Source: Methanocaldococcus jannaschii DSM 2661
GTDB lineage: Archaea; AGJL01; Methanococci; Methanococcales; Methanocaldococcaceae
NCBI RefSeq assembly: GCF_000091665.1
Contig: NC_001733.1
Location: 1-16,550, forward strand
Direction of reading: 5' to 3'
Length of the DNA stretch: 16,550 nucleotides
Every line of letters starts with the position of its first letter. Positions within the stretch are counted from its first letter, which is position 1. The notes under the pieces are model-generated. The model searched no databases. It had not been told where the DNA came from and saw only the letters and a list, made by a program, of their open reading frames with translations. Of the stretch, positions 58 to 16,550 are shown piece by piece. The position numbers and the translations under genes are program-made.

Positions 58-118
58 AAACAATCCCTTTTCAATGTTTGGTTTATTTATAGTAAAGATT
101 TAATATCCTCGTATTATT

Positions 119-310
119 CTACACCCCATTTTCAATAATCCTAACCCACTCATGAGATATTATTTTCTTAATTAATTTGTTTATTTCTTTATCACCTTTT
201 ATTGATTCATAAACTTCATTAATTGTTTTTAGATTTTCTTCCTCTAATTGTTTTAATTCCTCTTCCTCTTCTTCTGTTAAATCGCCTTCTAACAGCTTTT
301 TCCAATACAA
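119..310 (-). CDS. Small acidic hypothetical protein (63 aa from a TTG start; EEEEEE tract)
   Basis: ORF track. The first codon at 310..308 is TTG, not ATG, with no obvious SD. The frame stays open upstream to 424 without any ATG/GTG/TTG, so the start is unresolved. Confidence 0.35.
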   Translation of the reverse strand: MYWKKLLEGDLTEEEEEELKQLEEENLKTINEVYESIKGDKEINKLIKKIISHEWVRIIENGV

Positions 311-428
311 TTCAGCCCATCTATCATAATTTATTGGTTTTAAGTGCTTTGAAATTGTTTCTAATAGATGTTCTTCATCCCCACTGTATAATTTTGTTTG
401 GAGCGGAGCTTTTAAGGAACTTGGTTAA

Positions 429-1259
429 TTAAAGAAATCCCAGTTTATTAAGTATATCTTTTTCAAGAATCTCAAGGATTTCTAAGACATCTCGACCTTT
501 TGTAATTGGTCTGATAATCCAATATTCTGCATTTTTCTGTTTTAAGTCATCATGTTCTCCATAGTTTTCTAAGTCATCAAATGTGCAACCCCCTACAAAA
601 TAAACTTTTACGTTATTTTTAAAATAATCCAGAGCTTTATTTTTTTCCTGTTTAAAAGCATTTTCTAATCTTTTGTTATATTCCCATTTTTTTAAGTGAG
701 GATTATATCCATAATCTCCTGGATTGTGAAATATTATTCTAAAATAATAATCTTTATTATGTTCTTTCGACTTATAAGATGTAGTGTATGAACCCAATAT
801 ATCAAAATCTTTATTTAAAATGTCATTTAAGTCATATTTAGTGGCTATTGATGACCTAATCTCTATTGTAATTATCTCATCATTTGAAAGATGAATTTCT
901 ATGTCATTGTGGGATTCATAGTTAAAATTTTCATTGCTTACATTTGCACCTTTGATTTCAATGTAATCTTTTATTAACATTAATTTTTCAGTAATTAATT
1001 GTTTTACAACTTTTTCTGCAATAAGTCCGCAAAATGATGACAATAATTTTCTTTCTTCTGTTCTTATATCTCCACTTGGATTCTTTTCACAAACATCTTC
1101 TGCTAATTTTTTAGCTTCATCATGGATATTATTTAATTCATTATCATCTAATTCTACTTTTATTACTACAAAAATATTTTTTTGTGATATAGGGGTTATT
1201 TTGCTTCCATTATATTTATTTATAGGATGTCTATAGTATTTTTCAAATATAAATTTCAT
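429..1259 (-). CDS. Hypothetical protein, possible PD-(D/E)xK-fold nuclease partner of the upstream RM fusion
   Basis: 276-aa ORF with ATG at 1259. Its SD AGGTGAT overlaps the TAA stop (1269-1271) of the RM gene, which suggests translational coupling. Candidate nuclease elements by eye: helix GLIAEKVV, then HNDIEIHL, then ITIEIRSS (D...E-x-R). Confidence 0.7.
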   Translation of the reverse strand: MKFIFEKYYRHPINKYNGSKITPISQKNIFVVIKVELDDNELNNIHDEAKKLAEDVCEKNPSGDIRTEERKLLSSFCGLIAEKVVKQLITEKLMLIKDYIEIKGANVSNENFNYESHNDIEIHLSNDEIITIEIRSSIATKYDLNDILNKDFDILGSYTTSYKSKEHNKDYYFRIIFHNPGDYGYNPHLKKWEYNKRLENAFKQEKNKALDYFKNNVKVYFVGGCTFDDLENYGEHDDLKQKNAEYWIIRPITKGRDVLEILEILEKDILNKLGFL

Positions 1260-1268
1260 ACAATCACC

Positions 1269-4200
1269 TTAATTTTTATTCCGTATCTTACGCACCAATT
1301 CATTTGTATTTATGGTATTTAGTAATTTAATAATATTTTGGCAGTATTTTAAGCAGTCTATGGATTTTTCGTCATACTTTTTTATGATGCCATTAATTTC
1401 ATTGCAGATTTCGTTTAATTCCTCTTTTGGTATTAAGTCTTGGAAGTAAATCCCATAAACTAATGAATCTATTATATTTTCTAAAAATATTCTGTCATTT
1501 TCATTTAATTTATCGTTTAATTCGAACCTCAATTTACTTAACTGTGTTAAAGCGTTTATTATGTTTTTATTTTTGGGGATTACTATAGGTAACTCTCTTA
1601 ATTCTTCTAAGGTAGTCTGCCTAAAATCATCTTTTAATGCTATTGCCGACTTTCCAATGTATATATAAGATATTAACTCACTATTTAGTATTCCTAATAA
1701 ATAGAAGTAATTAATAGGAGTATCTGGCTTTAAAACAAACACATACAAATCCTTTTTTACAACTCCTTCAATATTTCCATAAGATGCCATAATTCTATCT
1801 TGTCTATTAACGATTCTCCGTATAAAGATTTTCTCGGGAGACATAAATAGATTAATAAGCTTTTCGTTGTTTTTATGTTTTGAGAAATCAACATAATTTT
1901 TTAATTTTAATTTAGTTTCATACCTATACACATTACCTTCTAAATATGGCAAATAATATTCGTTTTCTTTTTTATCTGAAAATTTATATTTTGAAGCTAA
2001 AATTCCTATTGTAGATTCTGTTAAATCTTCCAAGTAAGTTAGTGATTCTCTACAATTTTGTTTAATTTTATCTAATATTATGTAGATTTCGGGACTTTTT
2101 GGGAATATTCGACACTTTGGGTCATTTAATATTTTTGAATATTCTATGAAAAGGTCATTTTTAAACTCAAATGAGATTTTTTTAGTTTTTTTAGGGAATG
2201 CATATATCAAAACCAAATCTTCTGATTTTGGAGGTTTTTTATGCAGTATTATTATACAATTATCAACATACGCTCCTGAAAATACATCAAAAGGTAGATA
2301 GATTAATTTTTTCAGACACATTTTTGTAAATAACTCTTTTCTAAGATTTGAATATCTCACACCCGTTCCAAAACTTGATGGGATTATAAATCCTAAATAC
2401 CCCTCATTTTTCAATAATTTACTACTATGCACTATAAATGTTACAAAAATGTCAAATTCAGGAGTATCTCTACGTTTCATAATTTCTTTTTCAGTAGGAG
2501 ATAGCAAATTCCCATAAGGTGGATTTCCAATAATTACATCAAAACCTTCCTCTTTAATAATCCATCCGAAGTCAATCTTCCAATGGAAGGGTTTTAATTT
2601 TTCAAATTCCTCAACACGTGGTCTATTCTTTTTACTTTTTTTACCATTATTCTTTTTGTTATTTCCATTTTGGTAAATCTCAGCGAAATATGCTGGAGTT
2701 ACACTCTCATATATTGAATCTCTAATTTCATCTAATAATTCTTTTAACAGATTGGCTTTAAGTCCGTGGCTTGTTCTATATACTTCATAAAGGAGATGAT
2801 ACGCTTCCACATAATTGTCTAATACATATCCATCTCTTTTTTCAAGCAATTCTTTAGCTTTTTTCAGTTTTTTTCTCTCTTCAGAATTGTGAGCGTTGAT
2901 AATTAAACCTTCAAGAACACACATTATACGCACATTATCGCATAGGTAGGAGATGGAAAGCTGTTTTAAATTTTCATCAATCCATCCAACTAAACTGTTA
3001 CCACATCTTACATTATACTCAATATTTGGCAGTAAAACTTCTCCTCTTTTTAAAGCCTCAACGTCTAAATTCTCAATAAGAGCAAGCCACAACCTAAGTT
3101 TTGCTATTTCAACAGCAATATCATCAATATCAACACCATAAAGATTGTTTAGTATAATACCTAACTTTTCTTTGTAAATGTCCATCTCTTCTCTAAGTAA
3201 ATAATAAATCCTTTTCTTAATTTGGAGCAATTCCTTTAATGCAGATATTAAGAAATGACCACTTCCAACTGCGGGGTCTAAAATTCTTATTTTATCCAAT
3301 TCATCAAGAAAAGCTCTTAAAATATGTTTATTTTCAGCTATTTTACTATCTTCATTAAGAATTTCATCTAATGTTGAGAAATTAATGTCATTTATTTTCC
3401 AATTTTTAATAATCTCTTTAAACCTCTCTACAACAATCGGCTCTATTGTATTTTTGGCAATATAGCTTGTAATCTCATCTGGAGTATAATAAGCACCCAG
3501 TCCTTTCTGCCCTTTTTCTGCCAAAATATTAATTAACTTTTCATAAACATACCCAAGAATATCTGGATTTAATTCAACTTCTTCTGAACCTTCAGATGTA
3601 GATAGAGTGAATTTATACCTTTCTAAAAAATTAATAACCTCTCCAATAATTTCATTATCTTTTATAGTAAATGATAGTTCGTTAGGAACATTATTACTCC
3701 TGAATAATCCACCATTTAAGTAAGGGATGTCTTTATAGTAAGGATTAGTTCTAATATTTTCTTTTCTTTCATCTTCTGGAGTATTAAGCACTTCATAGAA
3801 TAATGGTTTAAGATAAGCATCATAATAATTTATTAAAACGTTAGATTTTTTGTAATCTTCATAAGTTCTTCTAAGCAAATCTCTTGGGACTATTCCCTTG
3901 TCCTCAAGGAATTTTATAAATATTAACCTGTTCATTAACAATACTGCAAATTTTTTCTTGTCCAATTCTGATGTATTGGGTGGAGCTTCAATACAATTGT
4001 ATAAGCATTTTTTAGTGCCTTTATCTTTTTCTGAACTACTTTTATCTTTTTTCTTAACATCCTTAACATCTTCAAATCCAAAAACAAGTTTTACGAACTC
4101 TTTATAGAATTCATTAGTAATTTCTTCTTTTTTATGTTTAATATTCTTTGTAGCAACTTCAATATATTCTTCAATATACTCCTTTGAAAAACAATAATAA

Positions 4201-4805
4201 AACTCAGAAAATACCTGTTTTAATTCATTTTCTAAATCTTTATCTTTTTTATTTTCAAGAACATACTCAAAAATAGATTTAAGATTCAATTCTTTGAGAG
4301 TTCTTATTTCTTTAATTGTATCATCATAGTGTAATAACACCCATTCTAAACCATTAGTGGCTATACCAGTATCTACGCCATAAGATTTGATAATTAACCA
4401 CTCCTTAACCTGGTGAATTCCAGAATCTTTTTTATTTAAATCACTACCTAAAGGTTCGGCTTCGATAAGAATTTCTTTGTTAAATACTGATACTCTATAA
4501 TCAGGAATTTTTCTATCTCCTAATGGTGATTTTTTAGATATTTCTGATGTGAATTCATAACCCAAGAATTCTAAAATTGGTTCTATAACCTTCTGCCTCG
4601 TAAATGGTTCTGGAAGTTGCCCTCCAAAATCATCAGATTTAAAATTGTATCTACCCTTTTTCAATAACTCTTTAAATTTGCCTTCTAATTCTGGAATTTG
4701 CTTAATAGACAAAATAATATTCCCAACAAGCTTAATAAAATCCTTCCACTTGTTATAAACTTCTTTTGGAATTTCTATATCAGAACACAATTTTGTTTGA
4801 GCCAT
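1269..4805 (-). CDS. Type IIG-like restriction-modification fusion: N-terminal HsdR_N/PD-(D/E)xK-like module, gamma-class N6-adenine DNA methyltransferase (Eco57I/PglX-like) and C-terminal target-recognition domain
   Basis: Motif X GAYYTPDEI. Motif I ILDPAVGSGHFL (about 3249-3278). CGNSLVGW insert. Motif IV GNPPYG (NPPY = 2514-2525). N-terminal IPDYRV...LIEAEPLG...IATNGLEW. C-terminal LRELPIVIP...IDSLVYGIYF, typical of TaqI/Eco57I-type TRDs. The track start at 4814 is GTG; I prefer ATG at 4805, preceded by AGGTGGT. Confidence 0.9.
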   Translation of the reverse strand: MAQTKLCSDIEIPKEVYNKWKDFIKLVGNIILSIKQIPELEGKFKELLKKGRYNFKSDDFGGQLPEPFTRQKVIEPILEFLGYEFTSEISKKSPLGDRKIPDYRVSVFNKEILIEAEPLGSDLNKKDSGIHQVKEWLIIKSYGVDTGIATNGLEWVLLHYDDTIKEIRTLKELNLKSIFEYVLENKKDKDLENELKQVFSEFYYCFSKEYIEEYIEVATKNIKHKKEEITNEFYKEFVKLVFGFEDVKDVKKKDKSSSEKDKGTKKCLYNCIEAPPNTSELDKKKFAVLLMNRLIFIKFLEDKGIVPRDLLRRTYEDYKKSNVLINYYDAYLKPLFYEVLNTPEDERKENIRTNPYYKDIPYLNGGLFRSNNVPNELSFTIKDNEIIGEVINFLERYKFTLSTSEGSEEVELNPDILGYVYEKLINILAEKGQKGLGAYYTPDEITSYIAKNTIEPIVVERFKEIIKNWKINDINFSTLDEILNEDSKIAENKHILRAFLDELDKIRILDPAVGSGHFLISALKELLQIKKRIYYLLREEMDIYKEKLGIILNNLYGVDIDDIAVEIAKLRLWLALIENLDVEALKRGEVLLPNIEYNVRCGNSLVGWIDENLKQLSISYLCDNVRIMCVLEGLIINAHNSEERKKLKKAKELLEKRDGYVLDNYVEAYHLLYEVYRTSHGLKANLLKELLDEIRDSIYESVTPAYFAEIYQNGNNKKNNGKKSKKNRPRVEEFEKLKPFHWKIDFGWIIKEEGFDVIIGNPPYGNLLSPTEKEIMKRRDTPEFDIFVTFIVHSSKLLKNEGYLGFIIPSSFGTGVRYSNLRKELFTKMCLKKLIYLPFDVFSGAYVDNCIIILHKKPPKSEDLVLIYAFPKKTKKISFEFKNDLFIEYSKILNDPKCRIFPKSPEIYIILDKIKQNCRESLTYLEDLTESTIGILASKYKFSDKKENEYYLPYLEGNVYRYETKLKLKNYVDFSKHKNNEKLINLFMSPEKIFIRRIVNRQDRIMASYGNIEGVVKKDLYVFVLKPDTPINYFYLLGILNSELISYIYIGKSAIALKDDFRQTTLEELRELPIVIPKNKNIINALTQLSKLRFELNDKLNENDRIFLENIIDSLVYGIYFQDLIPKEELNEICNEINGIIKKYDEKSIDCLKYCQNIIKLLNTINTNELVRKIRNKN

Positions 4806-4847
4806 AACTACCACCTAACATCTAAAAAATTTAAATTATTGATTAAT

Positions 4848-5174
4848 TTAAAGTTTCTTTAAAATTTGCTCATATTCGTCCTCTTTTACATATTTTCCAC
4901 AAACTGGAATAAATCTCTTTGGCTTAACAACTTTTGGATACTTTCTAATATTTTTTAAGATGATAACTATCCATGGTTTTTTCTTTTTCTTACCATATCC
5001 CCACTTTTTATTTGAATCTTCAATATATTTTTTAAATTCCTCTTCTGTTAAAAATAAATTATTTTTATATTTCTCAAGTATCTTCATAGGATTTTCAAAA
5101 AATTCTACTTCCTCAATCTCTGCCTCTCCATAAAATCCCTGCTCTTCCCTTGAAGCATAAAATATTATCTTCAT
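4848..5174 (-). CDS. ASCH/PUA-like fold small protein (apparently the C-terminal two-thirds of the domain)
   Basis: 108-aa ORF. The pattern IIFYAS...FYGEAEIEEV...LTEEEFKKY...WIVIILKNIRKYPKVVKP resembles archaeal ASCH-domain proteins from memory. Weak SD (AAGGGA). Confidence 0.55.
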   Translation of the reverse strand: MKIIFYASREEQGFYGEAEIEEVEFFENPMKILEKYKNNLFLTEEEFKKYIEDSNKKWGYGKKKKKPWIVIILKNIRKYPKVVKPKRFIPVCGKYVKEDEYEQILKKL

Positions 5175-5181
5175 TCCCTTT

Positions 5182-5295
5182 TCAAGTTTTGGTTAATGTT
5201 GCTGGTTTGACAAAAACATTTTTATGCTCATCCAAAATCCTACCAATTAATGACTTGGGAATTGGAAATGTAGCTCCTACAATTTTATCATCCAT
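5182..5295 (-). CDS. Unlisted 37-aa ORF (MDDKIVGATFPIPKSLIGRILDEHKNVFVKPATLTKT); probable N-terminal fragment of the ASCH-like gene, or alternatively a short AbrB-like peptide
   Basis: ATG at 5295..5293 is preceded by a strong SD AGGTGAGG. TGA at 5184..5182. It is below the 60-aa cutoff of the ORF track. It ends 7 nt before the ATG of the 108-aa ORF, in a different frame. Confidence 0.45.
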   Translation of the reverse strand: MDDKIVGATFPIPKSLIGRILDEHKNVFVKPATLTKT

Positions 5296-5863: not shown

Positions 5864-5890
5864 AATAACAGCTCCAAGCAGTGATTAGGT

Positions 5891-5920
5891 TTCATTACCT
5901 TTCATTACTCATCATTATTA
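5891..5920. repeat. Three tandem 10-bp units TTCATTACCT / TTCATTACTC / ATCATTATTA just upstream of the coiled-coil/wHTH gene
   Basis: Read directly. Lies 28-57 bp upstream of the ATG at 5863 (minus strand), between a TATA-like stretch (about 5920-5935) and the start codon. Confidence 0.6.
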
Positions 5921-6103
5921 TAAATATAGTAAATAAAATTTACCTTATTTTTAATGTGTCCCTCAATTAATTTATTATACAAAATGACTGTCCATATTGA
6001 TAAAATCGGCAATATACGCTCTATAAGTGGTATGCACTTTGAAAATTCTTAACTTATCCTGAACTTTTAGGCAACCAATAATAAATAATATGCAATCTCC
6101 TTT

Positions 6104-6158
6104 TTAATTGATTAATTAATCAATTAAGCAATTAATTGAGTATCAATTGATTAATTGC
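6104..6158. repeat. Palindrome cluster: perfect 24-bp palindrome TTAATTGATTAATTAATCAATTAA (6104-6127), then GCAATTAA...TCAATTGA...TTAATTGC (6128-6158)
   Basis: I checked the reverse complement base by base for 6104-6127. There are 8-bp inverted arms at 6128-6135 / 6151-6158 and an internal 8-bp palindrome TCAATTGA at 6143-6150. The 12-mer AATTGATTAATT occurs at 6106 and 6146. Confidence 0.85.
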
Positions 6159-6322
6159 AAAACTTTTTATACTTCAATTGAGAAAAGAAAATGGTTGAAA
6201 ATAGTTAAAAACGAAAAGCTTATATTTTCTTAGAAATATACAACTAAAAAAGGTTATCTACTCTCAATTGGTTATTACACAAAAAGCCTACCCAATTTAC
6301 AAACTTGGAATTAACTCACCTG

Positions 6323-6330
6323 TTTATATA
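6323..6330 (+). promoter_or_regulatory. Archaeal TATA box TTTATATA for the 144-aa membrane protein gene
   Basis: Exact match to the methanogen TATA consensus, about 53 bp upstream of the ATG at 6383. A GGTG SD lies at 6373-6376. Confidence 0.5.
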
Positions 6331-6382
6331 AATGTTACTAAAAATTAGAAAAGTAGAAAGATAATGCCCTTATGGTGTTGTC

Positions 6383-6817
6383 ATGGAAAGTAAAGAATAT
6401 CGCAAATTAGAGTATAACTATAAAGCTTTTTTAATTTTTTCTAAAGTTGCCATGCTAACATTTCTAACCGTCGGTATTGGTGCTATATTTACGCCACAAA
6501 CATATCCAATAATGCCAACCATTGGTTTTATAGTTGTTGCTGGAATCGTATCCTTAATAGGTATGACTATCGGAGCATTAATTATTCACCAACAATATGA
6601 GACGTTACCAGCTAACGAAAAGTTAGAATTTAAACAAAAACTCCTACCAGAAGCATACTACATTTGTATAGAATTGTTTGGTTACGGTTCATTAGTATTA
6701 TTATACAACACATTTACATCAAACAATCCTACATTATGCGTTATGTCTCTATTAATGGCAGGATTGTTTATATTGGTAGTCTTAGTAATCTGGTATTTTG
6801 GCTACAAAAGTTATTAA
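6383..6817 (+). CDS. Integral membrane protein, about 4 transmembrane helices, unknown function
   Basis: 144-aa ORF with ATG, SD and TATA. Four long hydrophobic segments (AFLIFSKVAMLTFLTVGIGAIF, TIGFIVVAGIVSLIGMTIGALII, YYICIELFGYGSLVLLY, LCVMSLLMAGLFILVVLVIWYF). Confidence 0.8.
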   Translation: MESKEYRKLEYNYKAFLIFSKVAMLTFLTVGIGAIFTPQTYPIMPTIGFIVVAGIVSLIGMTIGALIIHQQYETLPANEKLEFKQKLLPEAYYICIELFGYGSLVLLYNTFTSNNPTLCVMSLLMAGLFILVVLVIWYFGYKSY

Positions 6818-6822
6818 GTATC

Positions 6823-6948
6823 TTATTCCTTAGATGCATCCTTAACTGGCTTTTTAAATAGCCAATAATTCAAAACTGCAAAGGCAATAATTAACAATCC
6901 ATACATCAACATGGCAGTAAAGAATATCCACAAATTAGCATCTTCCAT
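6823..6948 (-). CDS. Unlisted 41-aa single-pass membrane peptide (MEDANLWIFFTAMLMYGLLIIAFAVLNYWLFKKPVKDASKE)
   Basis: ATG at 6948..6946 preceded by GGTGGT. TAA at 6825..6823. Last ORF of the minus-strand replication block. Below the ORF-track cutoff. Confidence 0.4.
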   Translation of the reverse strand: MEDANLWIFFTAMLMYGLLIIAFAVLNYWLFKKPVKDASKE

Positions 6949-7005
6949 AACCACCAGCCCCTATTTTTCTACTTATGATTATGGCAACTAATGAGATATA
7001 AACCT

Positions 7006-7428
7006 TTACTCCTCTAACGGAATTAAAGCAACAATATGCCCTTTTTGGATTATAATCCTCTCAACTTCCTTATCATCAACCTTAGCGTCCAAAACCATAA
7101 TATTAAACCTATCCTTTGCCTTGACAGTTCCCTCAACAATCATACCATTATCTAAGTAAATTTTACACTTTTTCTTATGAGCAAATAATAGCATATAATC
7201 CTTATAATCGTCATCCTTCTTCTTAGGTTGCTTTTTCATCGGTTTTCTTTGTGGTTTATTCTGCTTATTCAAATTCTCAACCTCCTTAGCTATTATATCA
7301 TAATGCTTACTTTTAATGTGCTTTTTAATTGCCTTTACATCTGCATTAGTGTAATTACAGTATGGACATTTATAGAAAAATCCCTCTTTCTGTATTTCCA
7401 ATTTTTCAATATAATCATCTATGTTCAT
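7006..7428 (-). CDS. C2H2 zinc-finger plus basic linker plus Sm/LSm-like domain protein
   Basis: CPYC-x12-H-x4-H (classic C2H2). Lys-rich linker KQNKPQRKPMKKQPKKKDDD. The C-terminal KIYLDNGMIVEGTVKAKDRFNIMVLDA...IIIQKGHIVALIP fits the Sm1/Sm2 pattern. ATGA start/stop overlap with the primase gene; SD GGTGA. Confidence 0.8.
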   Translation of the reverse strand: MNIDDYIEKLEIQKEGFFYKCPYCNYTNADVKAIKKHIKSKHYDIIAKEVENLNKQNKPQRKPMKKQPKKKDDDYKDYMLLFAHKKKCKIYLDNGMIVEGTVKAKDRFNIMVLDAKVDDKEVERIIIQKGHIVALIPLEE

Positions 7429-8750
7429 TTTTTCACCAAATAGTTATTTTTATCCAACTCATAATACTTTTTATAAATCTCTATTTGCGTTTTTGCCTCT
7501 GGTATGTTCTCTTTTAGCCACTTAATAGAGCATACTTTACCATTCCTATCATAGAGATACCTAACTTCATAATCTATATGTTTGATGTATTTGTTGCCAT
7601 ACTTGGAAGCCCAACGGTTCAATAACTTTATAGTTTTATCTCTTCCATAGCCTAACAGCTTACATAATGAAGTTAAATAATAACAGCCTCTCATTTTGCC
7701 ATCTTCCCAATTGGAATTGATTAACTCATTAAGGTAGCTCTCCAACTTTACCTTATTTAATACAACTTCCTTATCTCCTATGGTTGTTTTGATGTATTCC
7801 CTCTTACTATGCTCTACCTTAGGTTTTGCCTTCTTATTGGTGTTTATTTCCAAATCTATCTTAATATCGTTATTCACTTTCTTAGTTGCTTGATAATATC
7901 TTAAAGCATCATCCACAAAGTCCGTTAAATCCCCTCTTATCTCTCCAAAGTTTTCATAGTATTTTGTTAGCTTCCTTATGAAGTATGGCTTTACATTCTG
8001 CAAATATATCGGTTTAAACTTCTCCACTTTGTTAATTGGAAACGGTATGCTTATCGGTGTCTTTCCCTCAATGTCTGCATAGTATAAGCTAAATGGTGCT
8101 GTTACAGTCATGTTTTCCTTATAGATTGATAAGTCAATACCCGTATCTCCTTCCTTGCCAACAAAATCTAACAACTTCCTTAGCTTAAAGTTTAGAAAGT
8201 TTGTTAATATGGTGCTTCCTTCAACATAGCCCTTATTTAGTATCTCATTAGGCAAATATCTGGCATTAATCCAAATATGAAAGCCCTTACTCCCACTAAA
8301 CTTTATGTGGATGTCCTTAACTCCATAATCTTTAAAAATCTCTCTTACTTCCTTAGCTATCTCCTTAGATTTCTTAAAGTTGCCTTTAAAGTCAATATCT
8401 ATAACCCAATCCCAATAATTGTAGTCGATAGCTGGATACTCCAACTCATATCTTGGACTCTCAAAGTAGTATGGAGAGCAGTAAATACTCCTAAGGTTCT
8501 CTATAATCCAATCCTTAAAGTTGCCTCTATAATCCCATAAATCAATATGCCTTAAATATGGCTTCTCCCCCTTTGGGATGTTGTTATAGTTCCAATACTT
8601 TGGATGTCTCCAATTGATTTTTCTATCTCTATCCAAATCCAACCTATGGCAACTTAATAACCTATCTAAACAAAAATAATATAAATATCTGGAAGTTAGT
8701 TTATAGTAGGTAAGCCTATCCATAGCTACCACCATTATAGTGGTCTCCAT
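7425..8750 (-). CDS. Archaeo-eukaryotic primase (AEP) / primase-polymerase with a C-terminal PriCT-like helical domain
   Basis: Motif I WVIDIDF (DxD). Motif [13 protein letters not shown] (sGxGxH). Motif III region GIDLSIY...TAPFSLY. An alternative start at the ATG at 8723 (M10) is preceded by GGTGGT and would remove the overlap with the helicase gene. Confidence 0.9.
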
Positions 8751-11700
8751 TGGTCGGATTCTGGATTATCCACATCTCCATTTTTCCACAGCTCTTTTAA
8801 AATCCCCCGTGCTGTATCTTCCGATATGTTGAAGTTTTCAGCAATTTCAACCGTAGTGTAGATTTTTGGATTTTGTAGCATGTAGTTTAAAATCTCTCTT
8901 TTTAGTTGGGATAACTTCCTACTTTCCTCTATAAGTTTGTTAATCTCTTCTAACTCTTCATCCTTTTGTTGTGTTTCTTTTATCTCTTCTCCAACCAATT
9001 TAAATATCTCCTTAACCTTATCTGGTGCTTTAATTCTTAACAAAACCCCTAAGATTGTCTTAAACCATATTTTTAATGCATCCCTAACATCCTCTAAATC
9101 CACATACTCCTTAAACTTAAGTTTAGCATAAGCTTTAGCCATATACTCAATTTGATTAAATAATCTATCGGAATATCCTTTAAATAGTCCGTAATCTCTC
9201 AATAAATCCCTTAACTTCTCCTCTACCTCCCAAAGTGTCTTTAATGCATCTTCCTTAAACTCAATATCCTTATTTTTAATGTAGCTAATGAATAAAGCAC
9301 ACTCGTAAGCTTCCAAATTCTTTTGTTTTATGAAGTTATTGTCTTCTCTCAATCTCTTAACTTTGTAGGTGTGTAGTTTAATCTCCTTCCAATCCTCGTT
9401 GGTGTATGGCTTTAATAGATAGATTAATGGAATTCTATCTGTCATTCCCCTCAAATTCTTCAAAGTAAAATCCAATATTTTTGACAATAACCATTCTGAT
9501 GCATTTAACTGGGGGTTAGCTCCCAATATATTATTAACTATCTTTTTAGCCCTATCTTCTGCCTCATTTCTATCATAGTCATGTTGTTTTAGTAACTTTT
9601 TAGCGAAGTAATTTATCATAGCTTCTTTAAACTCTTCAAATCCCTTTAAGTGGTAAATTTCCCAAAGCTCCATTAAGTCAATATCCTTAATGTTCCCTAC
9701 TCCAATCCATGGGCTTACCCCAATCATTGGGATGTTATAACCCTCTCTTTCTCTCTTCCAAATACCTGAAGTTTTACCACTTTTTAATAAGTCTAAGTCG
9801 TTGCCTACTCTTAAAATAAAGTCCATCATCTCTTCAATAAATATCGGTCTATTGTGGTTCATTGGGATTATTCCTTTTTTATAGAATTTTATGTTATCTC
9901 TGGAGATAACTAAACCTATTAAGTTCTCTATGTTAGGCATATCTACTCTTATCATGTCCTCAGTAGTGTTGTGGAGTTTTGCCAATGGTTCTATTGTTAA
10001 ACTCTTCCCTTGTCCATAGCTTCCAATGAACAAACAATCAATAGTTTCAGGCTTTAAGTGTCCATCCCTATTTTTATCCCAATATATATGGGATGATGCC
10101 AGTATCTCCAATGTTATTAAAGTGTCTATCGTTGGATTTTTCCCTTCTTTGTCCAATATTGCCTTCACTTCGTAAAATACCCTATCTTTAATATAATCTA
10201 AGGCATTACTATAACCAGCATTCTTAACCTTCCTAACAAAGGCATCATAATTGAAATTTATGGTCTTTTGTGGATTGATACTTAAGCCCTCTATGTAATA
10301 CTCTCCTTTATGGTTTGTTTTCAAAATTCCTACAATTTCAACATCCCTTAGGTTGTTAATCTCTGGTGTGTATGGAAGATAAACCCTATAAACTTCATCC
10401 GTTTCTTTTAATTGGATTATGGCTATCGTTAAATCCCTTTCCAACTTTATTGGTTCTCCATCTTCATCTTTGAATAGGGATTCTGAATATTTTATGTCTC
10501 TGCCACACTCTGGACACTTAATTTTATAATCTTGGCTGTTTTCCACTGGCTCATACAACCTTATAACTTCACAATTACATCCCTTGTTATTGCCGTTCTT
10601 ATCCAAATCAATACATACATAACGTCTCAAAATTGGTCTGCTTTTCCTATGGTGTATTATTCCCGCAATATCTCCCCTAAATACACACAATTTATTCCTA
10701 AACTCTCCCCAATCCTTAGCTTTTGTCATTATGGTCCTACTTCTTAGTGTCTCTAAGCCAATTATGTTAATCTCTAAAGGCTTAAATTGGAAGTATTTTT
10801 CATAATAAACTTTATAAATCATCTCTATGGCTTCATACGGTTCATTTAAGAGTAAGCTCCTAAAGTAAGCCCCTACAATTCTCTCTTTGCCCTTTAACCT
10901 ATCAACTTCGTTAATGTCAAATTCAAAGCCCTCTGGTGTTAATCTCTCTTCTATGAATTTTTTAAGTGATTTTTTCAAATCTTCCATAAATTCGCTTTTA
11001 GCTTCTGCCTCTTGGAATGCTTTTTTAGGTAAATACTCATCTAAGATGTCTTTAATGTCTTCATAGAATTTGTAAGTTAGATAAATGTATTTTCTATCGT
11101 AATCCTCTGGATTTTTCCTTATGTCAATCCATTCTAATTGTTTGTAAATCTTTAGGTGTTGCTTTAATGTTCCTTCTCCAATTTTCAACTGCTCTATGGC
11201 TTTATTCATAAATTCGTCAAATCTCATACCTTCAAAGGTTAGGATTGTGAATATTTTAGCAGTTTTTTTACAATCATCGTTTTTATAACTCTTTTTTAAT
11301 GTGTTGGCTCTCTCGCCGATTTTGTTGCATAGGTCTTCAATCATACTATTATCTTGTATATTATGCAGTAATTGGTGAAGCATAGTGAAGTCGTTATTTT
11401 GTTGGTGAAGTGCAGTGAATTCTTCACCACATTGGTGAAGCATAGTGAAGTCGTTATTTTGTTGGTGAAGTGCAGTGAATTCTTCACCAACAATTTCACC
11501 AATTTTTATGTCTCTATTTTGTTGGTGAAGCATTTCACCAGCTTTCACCAATTTTAATACGACTTCCTTAGGGTCGTGTATCTCCCAGAAGCTCCAACCT
11601 AAAATTGACGTAATTGCATCCTCCAATCTATATAGTTTGTCGGTTGGCAATTCTGCCCCTAACTCCCATAAACCATATTTTAATAATAGTTGCCTCTCTT

Positions 11701-11929
11701 TCAGAGGTAGCTTGTTTAATGAAAATAGCCATATATTTCCTAAGATTTCAGTATTGTTTTTGTTATGCTCGTCTAATTCTTTGATAGTATTAGGGTCATA
11801 TCTAATGTTCAGTAATTTTATGGCAACCTCTAAAACATCCTCTGGATATTGATTAATTTCATTAATTGTATATTCCAATACATTGTTGTTCTGTATGTTA
11901 TTTATACTACCATTTACATATTTATCCAT
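8735..11929 (-). CDS. Divergent MCM-like AAA+ helicase with an N-terminal extension (LHQ decapeptide repeats plus a wHTH-like segment), OB/zinc-ribbon, ATPase core and C-terminal winged helix
   Basis: Zn ribbon CNCEV...CPECG after VFRGDIAGI. Walker A GSYGQGKS. Walker B-like [15 protein letters not shown] (compare AAANP). Arg-finger-like [11 protein letters not shown] (compare SRFDLIF). C-terminal [51 protein letters not shown] before the ATG at 11929. Confidence 0.7.
11371..11490. repeat. Intragenic tandem duplication, 2 x 60 bp, 59/60 identical
   Basis: 11371-11430 and 11431-11490 differ only at the last base (c/a). They encode the repeated [21 protein letters not shown] degenerate third register appears at 11513-11530 (ATTTTGTTGGTGAAG again exactly 60 bp later). 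Confidence 0.95.
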
Positions 11930-12635
11930 GCCTAACCACCTCTGTTGTTGTTAGGTTTTTCGGAGTTTTGAGGGTATGGAGATACCTTTTATAGGTTCTC
12001 CCTATCTTTTCCAGTATATTTAATAAAGCTATTTTTGAAGTTTTAACTTTATAAACATTAAATGATGTTCTTTTATGTAGCATTATCAACTTGAAAGCAT
12101 TATTTTCAAATTCGTGATATAGAAATCTTTCAAAAGTTGATATTGCAAATACTTTTATGGAACATATACAATTATCCACATTTATTCTATTGTATCCTAA
12201 AATCAGTTTAGTTAAATATTCCAATTTATATAATTTATGTGTTGAAGCATCTTGATATTTAACCAATGAACCACAACTTAAAAATAACATCTCATCTTCC
12301 AAAGGTAGATTACACAATGAAAATAGCCAATGGGATAAACTTAATTTTATATAATACAACTTACTATAATAGTTAGTTAGTAACTTTATAGTGCCTTTCA
12401 ATACATTGTCAGAATAGCATTTAATCCATTTAACCAAATATTCCAAATCTATGATAATCAAAAAATATATATAATTGTTTATGACACACATATAATCACC
12501 TCCTTTGCAGTGGTTTTCCAAGTATTTTCCCAATTTGGGGAAGGAAGGGGGCTTAACACTATTTTTTTTAATTTCAAAGTATATAAACCTTACGAAATTA
12601 TCGGAATTATCTGTTCCATATTCAGGTAATGGCAT
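11922..12635 (-). CDS. Stand-alone paralog of the N-terminal domain of the MCM-like protein (237 aa from the ATG at 12635; 189 aa if started at the ATG at 12491)
   Basis: Matches by eye: [17 protein letters not shown] vs [17 protein letters not shown]; [16 protein letters not shown] vs [16 protein letters not shown]; [13 protein letters not shown] vs [13 protein letters not shown]; KVFAISTFE vs [17 protein letters not shown] start/stop overlap with the helicase gene. The internal ATG at 12491 is preceded by a near-perfect SD AAGGAGGTGAT. Confidence 0.6.
12580..12587 (-). promoter_or_regulatory. Perfect TATA box (TTTATATA on the minus strand), candidate promoter of the replication operon
   Basis: The plus strand reads TATATAAA at 12580-12587, 89 nt upstream of the SD-preceded ATG at 12491. 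It lies inside the N-terminal extension of the 237-aa ORF. Confidence 0.45.
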
Positions 12636-15407: not shown

Positions 15408-16550
15408 TTATCCCAACTTAAACTGTAAATGAACTACAATATCCTTTCCTTTTTGTTTAAGTTCTATATCTTTTATTTTTGAACAATTTCCACAGAATTC
15501 TTTTCTTAATATGTTTTTTATGTATCGGCATAAAGATTCTTTGATTATTGCATCGTTTATATCATACCAAATTGCATAATTTTTGAGTTCGAATTCAAAA
15601 TTTGGCTTTTTACTCTTCATTACCTCATATATTTCTTTAATAATATTGTCCCAGTTAGGTTTAATATATTCTTCATTTAATAAGTTTTTATCGATATATT
15701 TTTCAATATTTTCTTTCTGTGAGTCAAAACCATTTTTCTTTCGTATTATTTTATAGATTTTATACCCTCTTCCTAAAATCCTATGGTTAGTGGATTGTAT
15801 TTTTATCCATGTGTTAATTTCACGAATGGGTAGTCGTTGGTCTATTACATAGATTTTTCCATTTATCTCAATAGCTGCAGCAACATGCATAGGATGAGTT
15901 ACTAAATATAAGTTATAGTTGGGAAACAAATTCGAAAGTAAAGCAATAGTTAGTTTAGCATAATCTCTACATACTGCTTTTTTGTATTTTAGAATTTTGG
16001 ACACTTTAATATCATAACATAAAGTATCATGCAGCATAGCGATTGCTGATACAAAATTTCCATTGCATTGAAACAAATATTTTACTATCAATGTAAGTAT
16101 TAACACCCAAAGTCCTGAAATTATACTAATAATTATAAGATTTTCACTGAAAATATACAATGTGAAGATACTTACTAACAACAACATGCTAATGTTGTTT
16201 AAGTATTGTGAATATTTTGATGGCAATGATATTAATACTAAGAGAGCCACTACTGCAGATATTACCCATAGTATCAATACCATAATATCATTGATTATAA
16301 TCTCAAAACCTATTATCAATAACAATACCATAAATAACAATACCACACCATATAACATAGCCGCAATAACATAATAAATTAAAGAATCTGCCGCTCTTTC
16401 CATCCAATATCTAATATTAGTTTCTTGCCATTCCAAAATATTATTTAAAGTTTCAACAATTGAATTTTCCCATAACTGTTCAGACAGTTTTTTTATTTCG
16501 TTACTATAAATTTCTTTTAGAGAAGGAATACTTAAAAAGTGTGACAACTT
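15408..16550 (-). CDS. Multi-pass membrane protein with a C-terminal transglutaminase-like (Cys-His-Asp) core domain; the ORF continues across the window junction to an ATG at 57
   Basis: Triad context KKAVCRDYAKLTIALL (Cys), THPMHVAAAIEINGKIYVIDQ (His, Asp). At least four hydrophobic helices lie upstream. The track's M at 16547 is a TTG, and 16548-16550 is an in-frame AAG. Confidence 0.8.
   Translation of the reverse strand, partial: KLSHFLSIPSLKEIYSNEIKKLSEQLWENSIVETLNNILEWQETNIRYWMERAADSLIYYVIAAMLYGVVLLFMVLLLIIGFEIIINDIMVLILWVISAVVALLVLISLPSKYSQYLNNISMLLLVSIFTLYIFSENLIIISIISGLWVLILTLIVKYLFQCNGNFVSAIAMLHDTLCYDIKVSKILKYKKAVCRDYAKLTIALLSNLFPNYNLYLVTHPMHVAAAIEINGKIYVIDQRLPIREINTWIKIQSTNHRILGRGYKIYKIIRKKNGFDSQKENIEKYIDKNLLNEEYIKPNWDNIIKEIYEVMKSKKPNFEFELKNYAIWYDINDAIIKESLCRYIKNILRKEFCGNCSKIKDIELKQKGKDIVVHLQFKLG

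Follow-up and report, generated by a model that had tools for sequence, protein, structure and literature searches.

Which polypeptide would cut DNA at a locus where a methylase with a variant nuclease-type domain is followed, within the same message, by a second nuclease-like protein? This question is raised by positions 429-5295 of a 16,550-nucleotide stretch from Methanocaldococcus jannaschii DSM 2661 (contig NC_001733.1), here called the window, which is almost certainly the complete small plasmid of this archaeon. Its three genes are all co-oriented on the minus strand, as the first-pass annotation had placed them. They encode a DUF365 (ASCH-like) protein, an enzyme of 1178 amino acids (aa) with a type IIG architecture (MJECS02, also named MjaORFECS2P) and a 276-aa protein. 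Architecture, conservation, co-variation, linkage and a gene relic are described here, and the methylation motif is taken from the literature. On this basis, positions 429-4805 may form a two-gene restriction-modification module in which the 276-aa protein is the matched nuclease, a reading to which we give about an even chance. Such a module is unusual, not unprecedented.

The large gene (1269..4805, minus strand) opens with an ATG at 4805, 5 nucleotides (nt) past AGGTGG. Its product is recognised by the Pfam domains MmeI_hel, MmeI_Mtase, Eco57I, N6_Mtase and TaqI_C and by the PADLOC model REase_MTase_IIG (E 1.6e-57), and its closest solved structures are MmeI and the BREX proteins PglX/BrxX. 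From its N-terminus, it presents the domain order of a type IIG/IIL fusion, all on the minus strand: an HSDR_N-like nuclease-type domain (4287..4613), an MmeI-type helical spacer assigned by Pfam (3702..3938, where the DUF7814 region of its relatives overlaps), a gamma-class N6-adenine methyltransferase domain (2160..3344) with NPPY at residues 761-764 (2525..2514), and a TaqI_C-type target recognition domain (1584..1949, Pfam E 2.7e-24). The claim of a type IIG fusion with a gamma-class N6-methyladenine (m6A) methyltransferase is borne out by the Pfam domains, the NPPY motif and the PADLOC type IIG match. Besides this NPPY, no other (D/N/S)PP(Y/F/W/H) amino-methylase motif was found on the plasmid. 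The gene departs from the type IIG/IIL pattern in that it does not stand alone: a nuclease-like gene is coupled to it 9 nt downstream, and this pairing is conserved.

A look-up in REBASE, which had been proposed as a check, is informative for one half of the pair: the 1178-aa gene is already catalogued there and appears in published methylome tables, while the partner nuclease is not listed. For M. jannaschii, the tables of Blow et al. 2016 give MJECS02, MjaORFECS2P, IIG, m6A, ccAtc and 99.8, with the marks (active)/(Matched); CCATC is 99.8% methylated, the assignment to MJECS02 being marked as tentative. In the notation of those tables, capitals denote the modified positions on either strand, as in 'gATc', or in 'ccATc' for a two-methylase system, which means that only the top strand of CCATC is methylated. 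The 1178-aa methylase thus appears to be active in its host. The main-text literature on DUF365, MJECS01/02 and MjaORFECS2P yielded nothing useful, and avoidance of CCATC was not seen on the plasmid, which holds 14 sites against 14-26 expected, depending on the model.

A gap of 9 nt separates the stop codon of the large gene from the second gene of the putative module (429..1259, minus strand). The junction (1260..1271, minus strand) consists of the TAA stop, a GGTGAT Shine-Dalgarno sequence and a 3-nt spacer (TGT), leading to the ATG of the 276-aa gene. Neither the 276-aa protein nor its family profile finds a meaningful match in Pfam, NCBIfam, PADLOC or the PDB sequences. A word-index homology search with the protein gave 3-8 relatives; a hidden Markov model (HMM) scan of 1.84 billion representatives recovered 289 clusters (50% identity) at E <= 1e-3, and all the members looked up are unnamed or described as 'hypothetical protein'. 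An alignment of 81 sequences shows R66, E133, Y158, K163 and E166 to be invariant, with E82, D119 and R135 retained in 80/81. In the window, these conserved residues are encoded on the minus strand at 1016..1014 (E82), 905..903 (D119), 863..861 (E133), 857..855 (R135), 773..771 (K163) and 764..762 (E166). The D...E-x-R signature claimed for a protein immediately downstream of the methylase is therefore present, as D119...E133-I-R135, and conserved.

Structure prediction, the other check proposed for this protein, returned a confident model with a PD-(D/E)XK-like core. A first model built from three sequences (predicted local distance difference test, pLDDT, 36) was superseded by an AlphaFold2 model built from the 81 sequences, with a pLDDT of 90.2. 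Its elements follow each other as helix 68-92, strands 100-104, 120-124 and 129-139, helix 144-151 and strand 154-159. E82 lies on helix 68-92, D119 opens strand 120-124, and E133 and R135 sit on strand 129-139, so that D119 and E133 fit the PD-(D/E)XK positions; residue 135 is Arg, not Lys, and the invariant K163 and E166 follow strand 4. Additional subdomains are found at the N- and C-termini. According to this model, the predicted core of the 276-aa protein is of the PD-(D/E)XK type, the place of the Lys being taken by Arg. A Foldseek comparison of the model with the PDB gave nothing significant (best E 0.31), the non-significant top matches being enriched in PD-(D/E)XK nucleases (MspI, SfsA, EcoRV, BstEII and NucS/EndoMS), and a comparison with BFVD gave uncharacterised phage proteins only. 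Among the 81 members, weak matches were obtained to NERD (1/81) and to PD_DExK models (2/81). The family is not significantly related to the N-terminal domain family of the large enzyme (hhalign probability 0.4%). The assignment as a nuclease is thus made because of the predicted topology and the conserved residues, not by homology to a known enzyme. An SF2 (superfamily 2) helicase domain is absent from the 276-aa protein, from the seven scanned plasmid open reading frames (ORFs) and from the gene annotation of the plasmid, so the protein does not qualify as a type III Res subunit.

The coupling of the two genes recurs in other lineages. In plasmid pTBMP1 of Thermococcus barophilus MP (100% identical to locus L006), a gene for a 1199-aa 'N-6 DNA methylase' overlaps a 255-aa hypothetical gene by 4 nt, and on a hydrothermal-vent metagenome contig (L001) the genes for a 1145-aa IIG-like methylase and a 264-aa partner lie in this order, 9 nt apart. 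Between pTBMP1 and the window, the large proteins share 52% identity and the partners 38-40%; between L001 and the window, the partners share about 76%. The large gene and the 276-aa gene therefore represent a conserved coupled pair.

Sliding comparisons with the window enzyme reveal which part of the methylase the partner goes with. For the pTBMP1 enzyme, identity stays mostly within 40-76% over the full length. The L001 enzyme, in contrast, shows 13-38% identity up to about residue 720 (20-38% in the N-lobe of the methyltransferase), and the stretch between about residue 780 and its C-terminus reaches 75-93%. The opposite pattern is displayed by the enzymes of L050 and L071, with 31-61% over most of the N-terminal and methylase parts and 5-23% in most of the recognition region; they have unrelated recognition domains and no partner. 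By these alignments, the partner co-varies with the recognition domain and not with the N-terminal domain. As a separate observation on L001, the N-terminal 210 residues of its methylase (165-800 of the contig) are unrelated to those of the window enzyme, and hold no detectable domain or clear nuclease motif.

The portion of the methylase gene that codes for residues ~780-1178 (1269..2468, minus strand) would accordingly form a cassette with the 276-aa gene, with which it is inherited. Just downstream of the partner gene, at 116..415 on the minus strand, lies a reading frame without a proper start, which includes the 63-aa ORF 119..310. By BLASTP it aligns with the very C-terminal ends of two partner-less enzymes, those of L050 (47% identity, E 1e-17) and L071 (46%, E 8e-16), and it is a relic that covers the final ~80 codons of an older gene, type IIG-like as in those two loci. 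The presence of an L050-type C-terminus after the partner, together with the co-variation, suggests that an older L050-like gene probably lost its 3' part to a cassette made of recognition half plus nuclease.

From the perspective of gene neighbourhood, the 276-aa family is mostly methylase-linked, and four kinds of methylase are represented (EcoRI_methylase, D12 class, N6_N4 and IIG-like). Adjacency was found in the window, L001, pTBMP1, L008, 12 of the 13 genome loci (L021 counted with a methyltransferase fragment; L022 with none found), L011, L013-15, L118 and L121. In L008, an 890-aa N6_N4 methylase gene (559-3231) overlaps the partner relative P0042; for this methylase, NmeDI_C is present in the precomputed Pfam matches, and was not recovered in our own scan at E <= 0.01. 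Directly after EcoRI_methylase genes, with stop and start overlapping or abutting, family members occur in Ignatzschineria, Acinetobacter, Otariodibacter and Bartonella; the Ignatzschineria pair is a two-gene island flanked by housekeeping genes, sucAB-lpd on one side and a Rieske gene on the other. Decayed copies are seen at two loci, in Bartonella phoceensis (with a methyltransferase fragment beside it) and in Campylobacter. Methylases of the D12 class adjoin distant members in L026, L027 and L028. In L011, L024, L118 and L121, members stand between or beside type III-like Mod and Res/helicase genes, at times with DUF4391. A search of the genome contigs for the archaeal subgroup of the family gave no match.

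Some of these neighbourhoods hold further genes. L118 (M. hollandica pMETHO01) contains a helicase, DUF4391, a short family member, an N6_N4 methylase, a DEAD-box helicase and a restriction endonuclease; the core of L121 is DUF4391-member-methylase, and the genes of L024 are ordered Mod-member-Res. In L017-L020 (~5880-7046; Acinetobacter, Otariodibacter and two Bartonella), a 386-388-aa ORF directly follows the EcoRI-type methylase and the family member, and in Acinetobacter (L017) it is a GmrSD_N plus HNH protein, a type IV-like nuclease.

The nuclease-type domain at the N-terminus of the large enzyme bears on the same question from the other side. The first-pass annotation had read its signature as PD-x12-E-A-E, and this is confirmed at codon level: GAA GCC GAA (4463..4455) encodes E-A-E (E115-A-E117), 12 residues past the P-D that contains D102 (4502..4500), as in IPDYRVSVFNKEILIEAEP. 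The domain matches HSDR_N_2 weakly (E 0.024), over the full profile, and is not matched by the PADLOC type IIG models; its relative in L050 passes the HSDR_N_2 gathering score (E 5e-6). Relatives were sought with the first 320 residues of the 1178-aa protein (their Pfam label is DUF7814). D102 and E117 are invariant in six of them, and a metagenome scan added 80 further loci, 32-46% identical, which were aligned to the profile. The pattern (P/A)D...E-A/V/T-E is present in 81/81 sequences of this alignment. The 1178-aa protein does not have the canonical D...E-x-K triad of the MmeI enzymes, whose D70, E80 and K82 are conserved throughout and needed for function (PMC2731913). A recent K-to-E loss as the origin of E-A-E is ruled out by the invariance in the 81 homologues.

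Of the relatives of the whole enzyme, 55 are full-length; 35 of them come with at least 900 bp of downstream sequence, and none of these 35 has a homologue of the 276-aa gene there. The earlier proposal that the missing Lys indicates a transfer of cleavage to the partner finds no support in either result. An invariant D...E-x-E in enzymes that lack a partner is a selected family trait and not decay, and the variant site is under purifying selection. BamHI, with its active site D94, E111 and E113, is a PD-(D/E)XK nuclease that has Glu in place of the Lys of E-x-K and is fully active. It shares E-x-E with the N-terminal domain of the 1178-aa protein without any sequence relationship, and indicates only that E-x-E need not mean inactive. 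The N-terminal domain is probably still functional, so that the system may carry two nuclease modules.

In the proposed two-gene module, the 1178-aa protein would read its site by the C-terminal TaqI_C-type recognition domain and would methylate one adenine (CCATC, top strand). The 276-aa protein, made from the same message through translational coupling, would act as a metal-dependent PD-(D/E)XK-type nuclease, matched to the recognition domain, that restricts unmethylated DNA. The unit of recognition domain plus nuclease would behave as an exchangeable cassette, which would have taken the place of the 3' end in an older gene for a single-chain enzyme, whose last ~80 codons survive as a relic. 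Of the two-protein restriction system initially envisaged, the conserved coupled pair and the nuclease-like partner are retained, and the shift of cleavage away from the E-x-E domain is not.

Several points weigh against this module. The 35 partner-less relatives suggest that the large enzyme may suffice alone. We infer the nuclease activity of either module, and likewise the specificity of the partner; for the 276-aa protein, no characterised nuclease gave a significant match in sequence or structure (Pfam, NCBIfam, PADLOC, PDB, Foldseek and hhalign), and the protein carries Arg at the position where the PD-(D/E)XK family is expected to have Lys. Contexts L119 and L120 show no methylase. Some loci of distant members already hold a nuclease, namely the Res of the Mod-member-Res order in L024, an AlwI-like gene in L026 and the DUF4391/helicase clusters of L118 and L121, so the 276-aa family is not always the sole restriction nuclease. 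Finally, when only one strand is methylated, replication would produce one daughter duplex whose sites lack methylation on both strands and would be exposed to a free orthodox endonuclease, and a docked or two-site mode would therefore fit better than a simple type IIP/IIS partner.

Such docking defines the strongest alternative, a heteromeric enzyme, which we consider possible, if rather unlikely. The 276-aa protein, with little or no site recognition of its own, would dock on the C-terminal half of the 1178-aa protein and give the cut, or the cut of the second strand, while the D...E-x-E domain nicks or regulates. Methylation of one strand is tolerated by cutters that are bound to Mod or act on multiple sites, and the type III Mod also methylates one strand only. 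The inheritance of the partner together with the recognition half and the location of short family members directly beside type III-like Mod genes point the same way. A docked nuclease would most closely resemble type III Res, which acts with Mod, or the small subunit of BtsI, BsrDI or BspD6I. In these three enzymes, a large subunit with one catalytic site recognises the DNA site, and a small nuclease subunit is responsible for the other cut; the large subunits are not methylases, and the likeness to the 1178-aa/276-aa pair, drawn by description only, lies in the combination of a large recogniser with a small nuclease.

The MmeI family offers further support for a heteromer, since its members are protected by one-strand modification and need two sites (PMC2731913). 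A comparable logic was proposed by Morgan et al. 2009 for YeeA-type MmeI homologues without PD-ExK, which are flanked by helicase and GIY-YIG nuclease genes, the nuclease being proposed to cut (PMC2731913). These systems likewise combine an MmeI-type methylase-plus-recognition polypeptide with a separately encoded nuclease; they differ from the M. jannaschii pair, where the N-terminal nuclease-type domain is kept, the partner is small and PD-(D/E)XK-like, and there is no helicase. Against a heteromer, however, relatives of the 276-aa protein are found paired with simple methylases of the EcoRI and D12 types, which are not known to act in docking, and 276 aa with additional N- and C-terminal subdomains would be enough for DNA recognition by the protein itself.

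An extended form of the heteromer, which would constitute a new subtype, is unlikely on the present evidence. A IIG-type methylase that modifies one strand would recruit the small nuclease via its recognition half, and the two nuclease modules would divide between them either the strand cuts or sensing and cutting. The cassette would be swappable between methylase scaffolds, as suggested by the mosaic L001 enzyme and by the relic at 116-415, and type III-like Mod/Res clusters would use a member of the same family as a third subunit.

That the 1178-aa protein is self-sufficient seems decidedly unlikely. It would be a complete IIG/IIL enzyme by means of a BamHI-like D/E/E site, and the 276-aa protein would be a linked but separate nuclease (for instance for repair, plasmid maintenance or a second defence). 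The invariance of the D...E-x-E and the complete relatives that stand alone in all 35 cases with enough flank speak for it, both REBASE and Blow et al. give a type IIG enzyme with no partner, and some members of the 276-aa family have no visible methylase. However, translational coupling has been kept in three lineages, and it is difficult to see why the partner should co-vary with the recognition domain unless the two share a DNA target or are in physical contact. The L001 methylase, moreover, has no detectable nuclease domain, yet its partner is kept.

Comparison with other characterised systems helps to place the two-gene module. The MmeI family (IIL/IIG) has the same domain order as the 1178-aa protein, and in both cases one strand of an asymmetric site is modified and a second methylase is lacking (PMC2731913); the M. 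jannaschii enzyme differs by the D...E-x-E found in every one of its relatives and by the separate nuclease-like gene coupled downstream. Orthodox two-gene type II systems with an EcoRI-type methylase are approached by the relatives of the 276-aa protein that directly follow such methylases. Here, in contrast, the nuclease belongs to a family without a match among the characterised restriction enzyme families of Pfam, NCBIfam and PADLOC, and the methylase of the window is the 1178-aa IIG-like enzyme acting on one strand. HVO_A0006 from Haloferax volcanii, a fragment of a type IIG N-terminal nuclease domain with the signature PD-X14-E-A-K, influences methylation (PMC4389544); it is likewise an archaeal, plasmid-borne nuclease-type domain of the IIG kind, and differs in having the canonical E-A-K and in being a stand-alone fragment.

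The DUF365 gene (4848..5295, minus strand) precedes the methylase gene, and its product is homologous to a protein with a solved PUA-like/ASCH-like fold. In the record it is split into a 37-aa ORF (5295..5182), which matches residues 24-61 of PDB 2KKU, and a 108-aa ORF (5174..4848), which matches residues 63-161. Three independent assemblies of the plasmid are identical to the window except that they lack one base each at 5192 and 5468, giving a length of 16,548 bp. Without the base at 5192, the DUF365 gene is intact and encodes 148 aa. The protein described at first as a 108-aa ASCH/PUA-like reader is thus ASCH-like, as stated, and its size is that of the C-terminal part of a longer product. 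The single extra bases are probably sequencing errors in the record; the second of them breaks an upstream 175-aa coiled-coil gene, present here as ORFs of 135 and 63 aa.

Other PUA-like genes recur beside close relatives of the large enzyme: an EVE gene follows the partner on pTBMP1, EVE lies just upstream of the enzyme in L050 (in the order helix-turn-helix, EVE, enzyme, DUF553), and L047 has a weak EVE-like ORF. A PUA-like gene was found in 2/80 surveyed loci of relatives (L050 and, weakly, L047), in addition to pTBMP1 and the M. jannaschii plasmid, and not on the short contig L001. It varies in family and position between loci, so the three genes are not conserved as a trio, and the idea that the system senses modification has no direct support. 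A functional third component, in which the DUF365/ASCH-like protein would read modified nucleic acid and gate or target the nuclease(s), is very unlikely: to the recurrence of PUA-like genes and a weak PADLOC match to the defence-candidate model PDC-M11B (E 3.8e-4) are opposed the shifting family and position of the gene, its rarity, a T6 run that separates it from the enzyme gene and leaves co-transcription unproven, and a transglutaminase-like gene that recurs in the same neighbourhoods, which could equally be due to a common plasmid backbone. The DUF365 gene is a recurrent neighbour and not a demonstrated component of the system; the DUF365/EVE association is loose, and may reflect a plasmid backbone common with the transglutaminase-like gene.

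This transglutaminase-like gene encodes a 399-aa DUF553 membrane protein on the minus strand; from its start at position 57 it runs across the origin of the circle (15408..16550 plus 1-57), as the circular junction in the assemblies indicates. Independent assemblies span the ends of the window, and the plasmid molecule is therefore circular and complete. A gene of this kind (DUF553 or Transglut_core) recurs 3' of the same enzyme type in the window, in L050 (5260-6438) and on pTBMP1 (L006 9727-10731), and each of these three loci also holds a PUA-like gene. The DUF553 of L050 is homologous to the one that crosses the window origin. The plasmid, with 28% G+C, also encodes MCM-like, primase-polymerase and zinc-finger/Hfq-like genes, and a ZF/Hfq-like protein has been published for 'ECE2'. 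A megablast of the whole window against PLSDB gave no match. Within the MCM-like replication gene (8735-11929, minus strand), positions 11371-11489 hold a perfect 60-bp tandem duplication, by which a 20-aa peptide is repeated. Just upstream of this gene, a 237-aa ORF (11922-12635) resembles residues 18-113 and 218-254 of the MCM-like protein (34% identity, E 7e-9), and is a partial paralogue or duplicated N-terminal segment.

The methylase of this locus was already catalogued; what is new is the family of the partner, the branch with an invariant E-x-E and the exchange of the cassette. The first is a family of 289 clusters that stands beside DNA methylases of four classes in bacteria and archaea and is currently unannotated, and since neither Pfam, NCBIfam nor PADLOC recognises it, restriction and defence annotation overlooks its members. 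In the second, an entire branch of type IIG-like enzymes holds an invariant D...E-x-E in place of E-x-K. The combination of one-strand methylation with a separate nuclease raises the question of how the unmethylated daughter duplex is spared, the same puzzle as is posed by the MmeI-type enzymes. With its left-over gene end, the M. jannaschii locus would finally represent a concrete example of how specificity can change through the exchange of a cassette.

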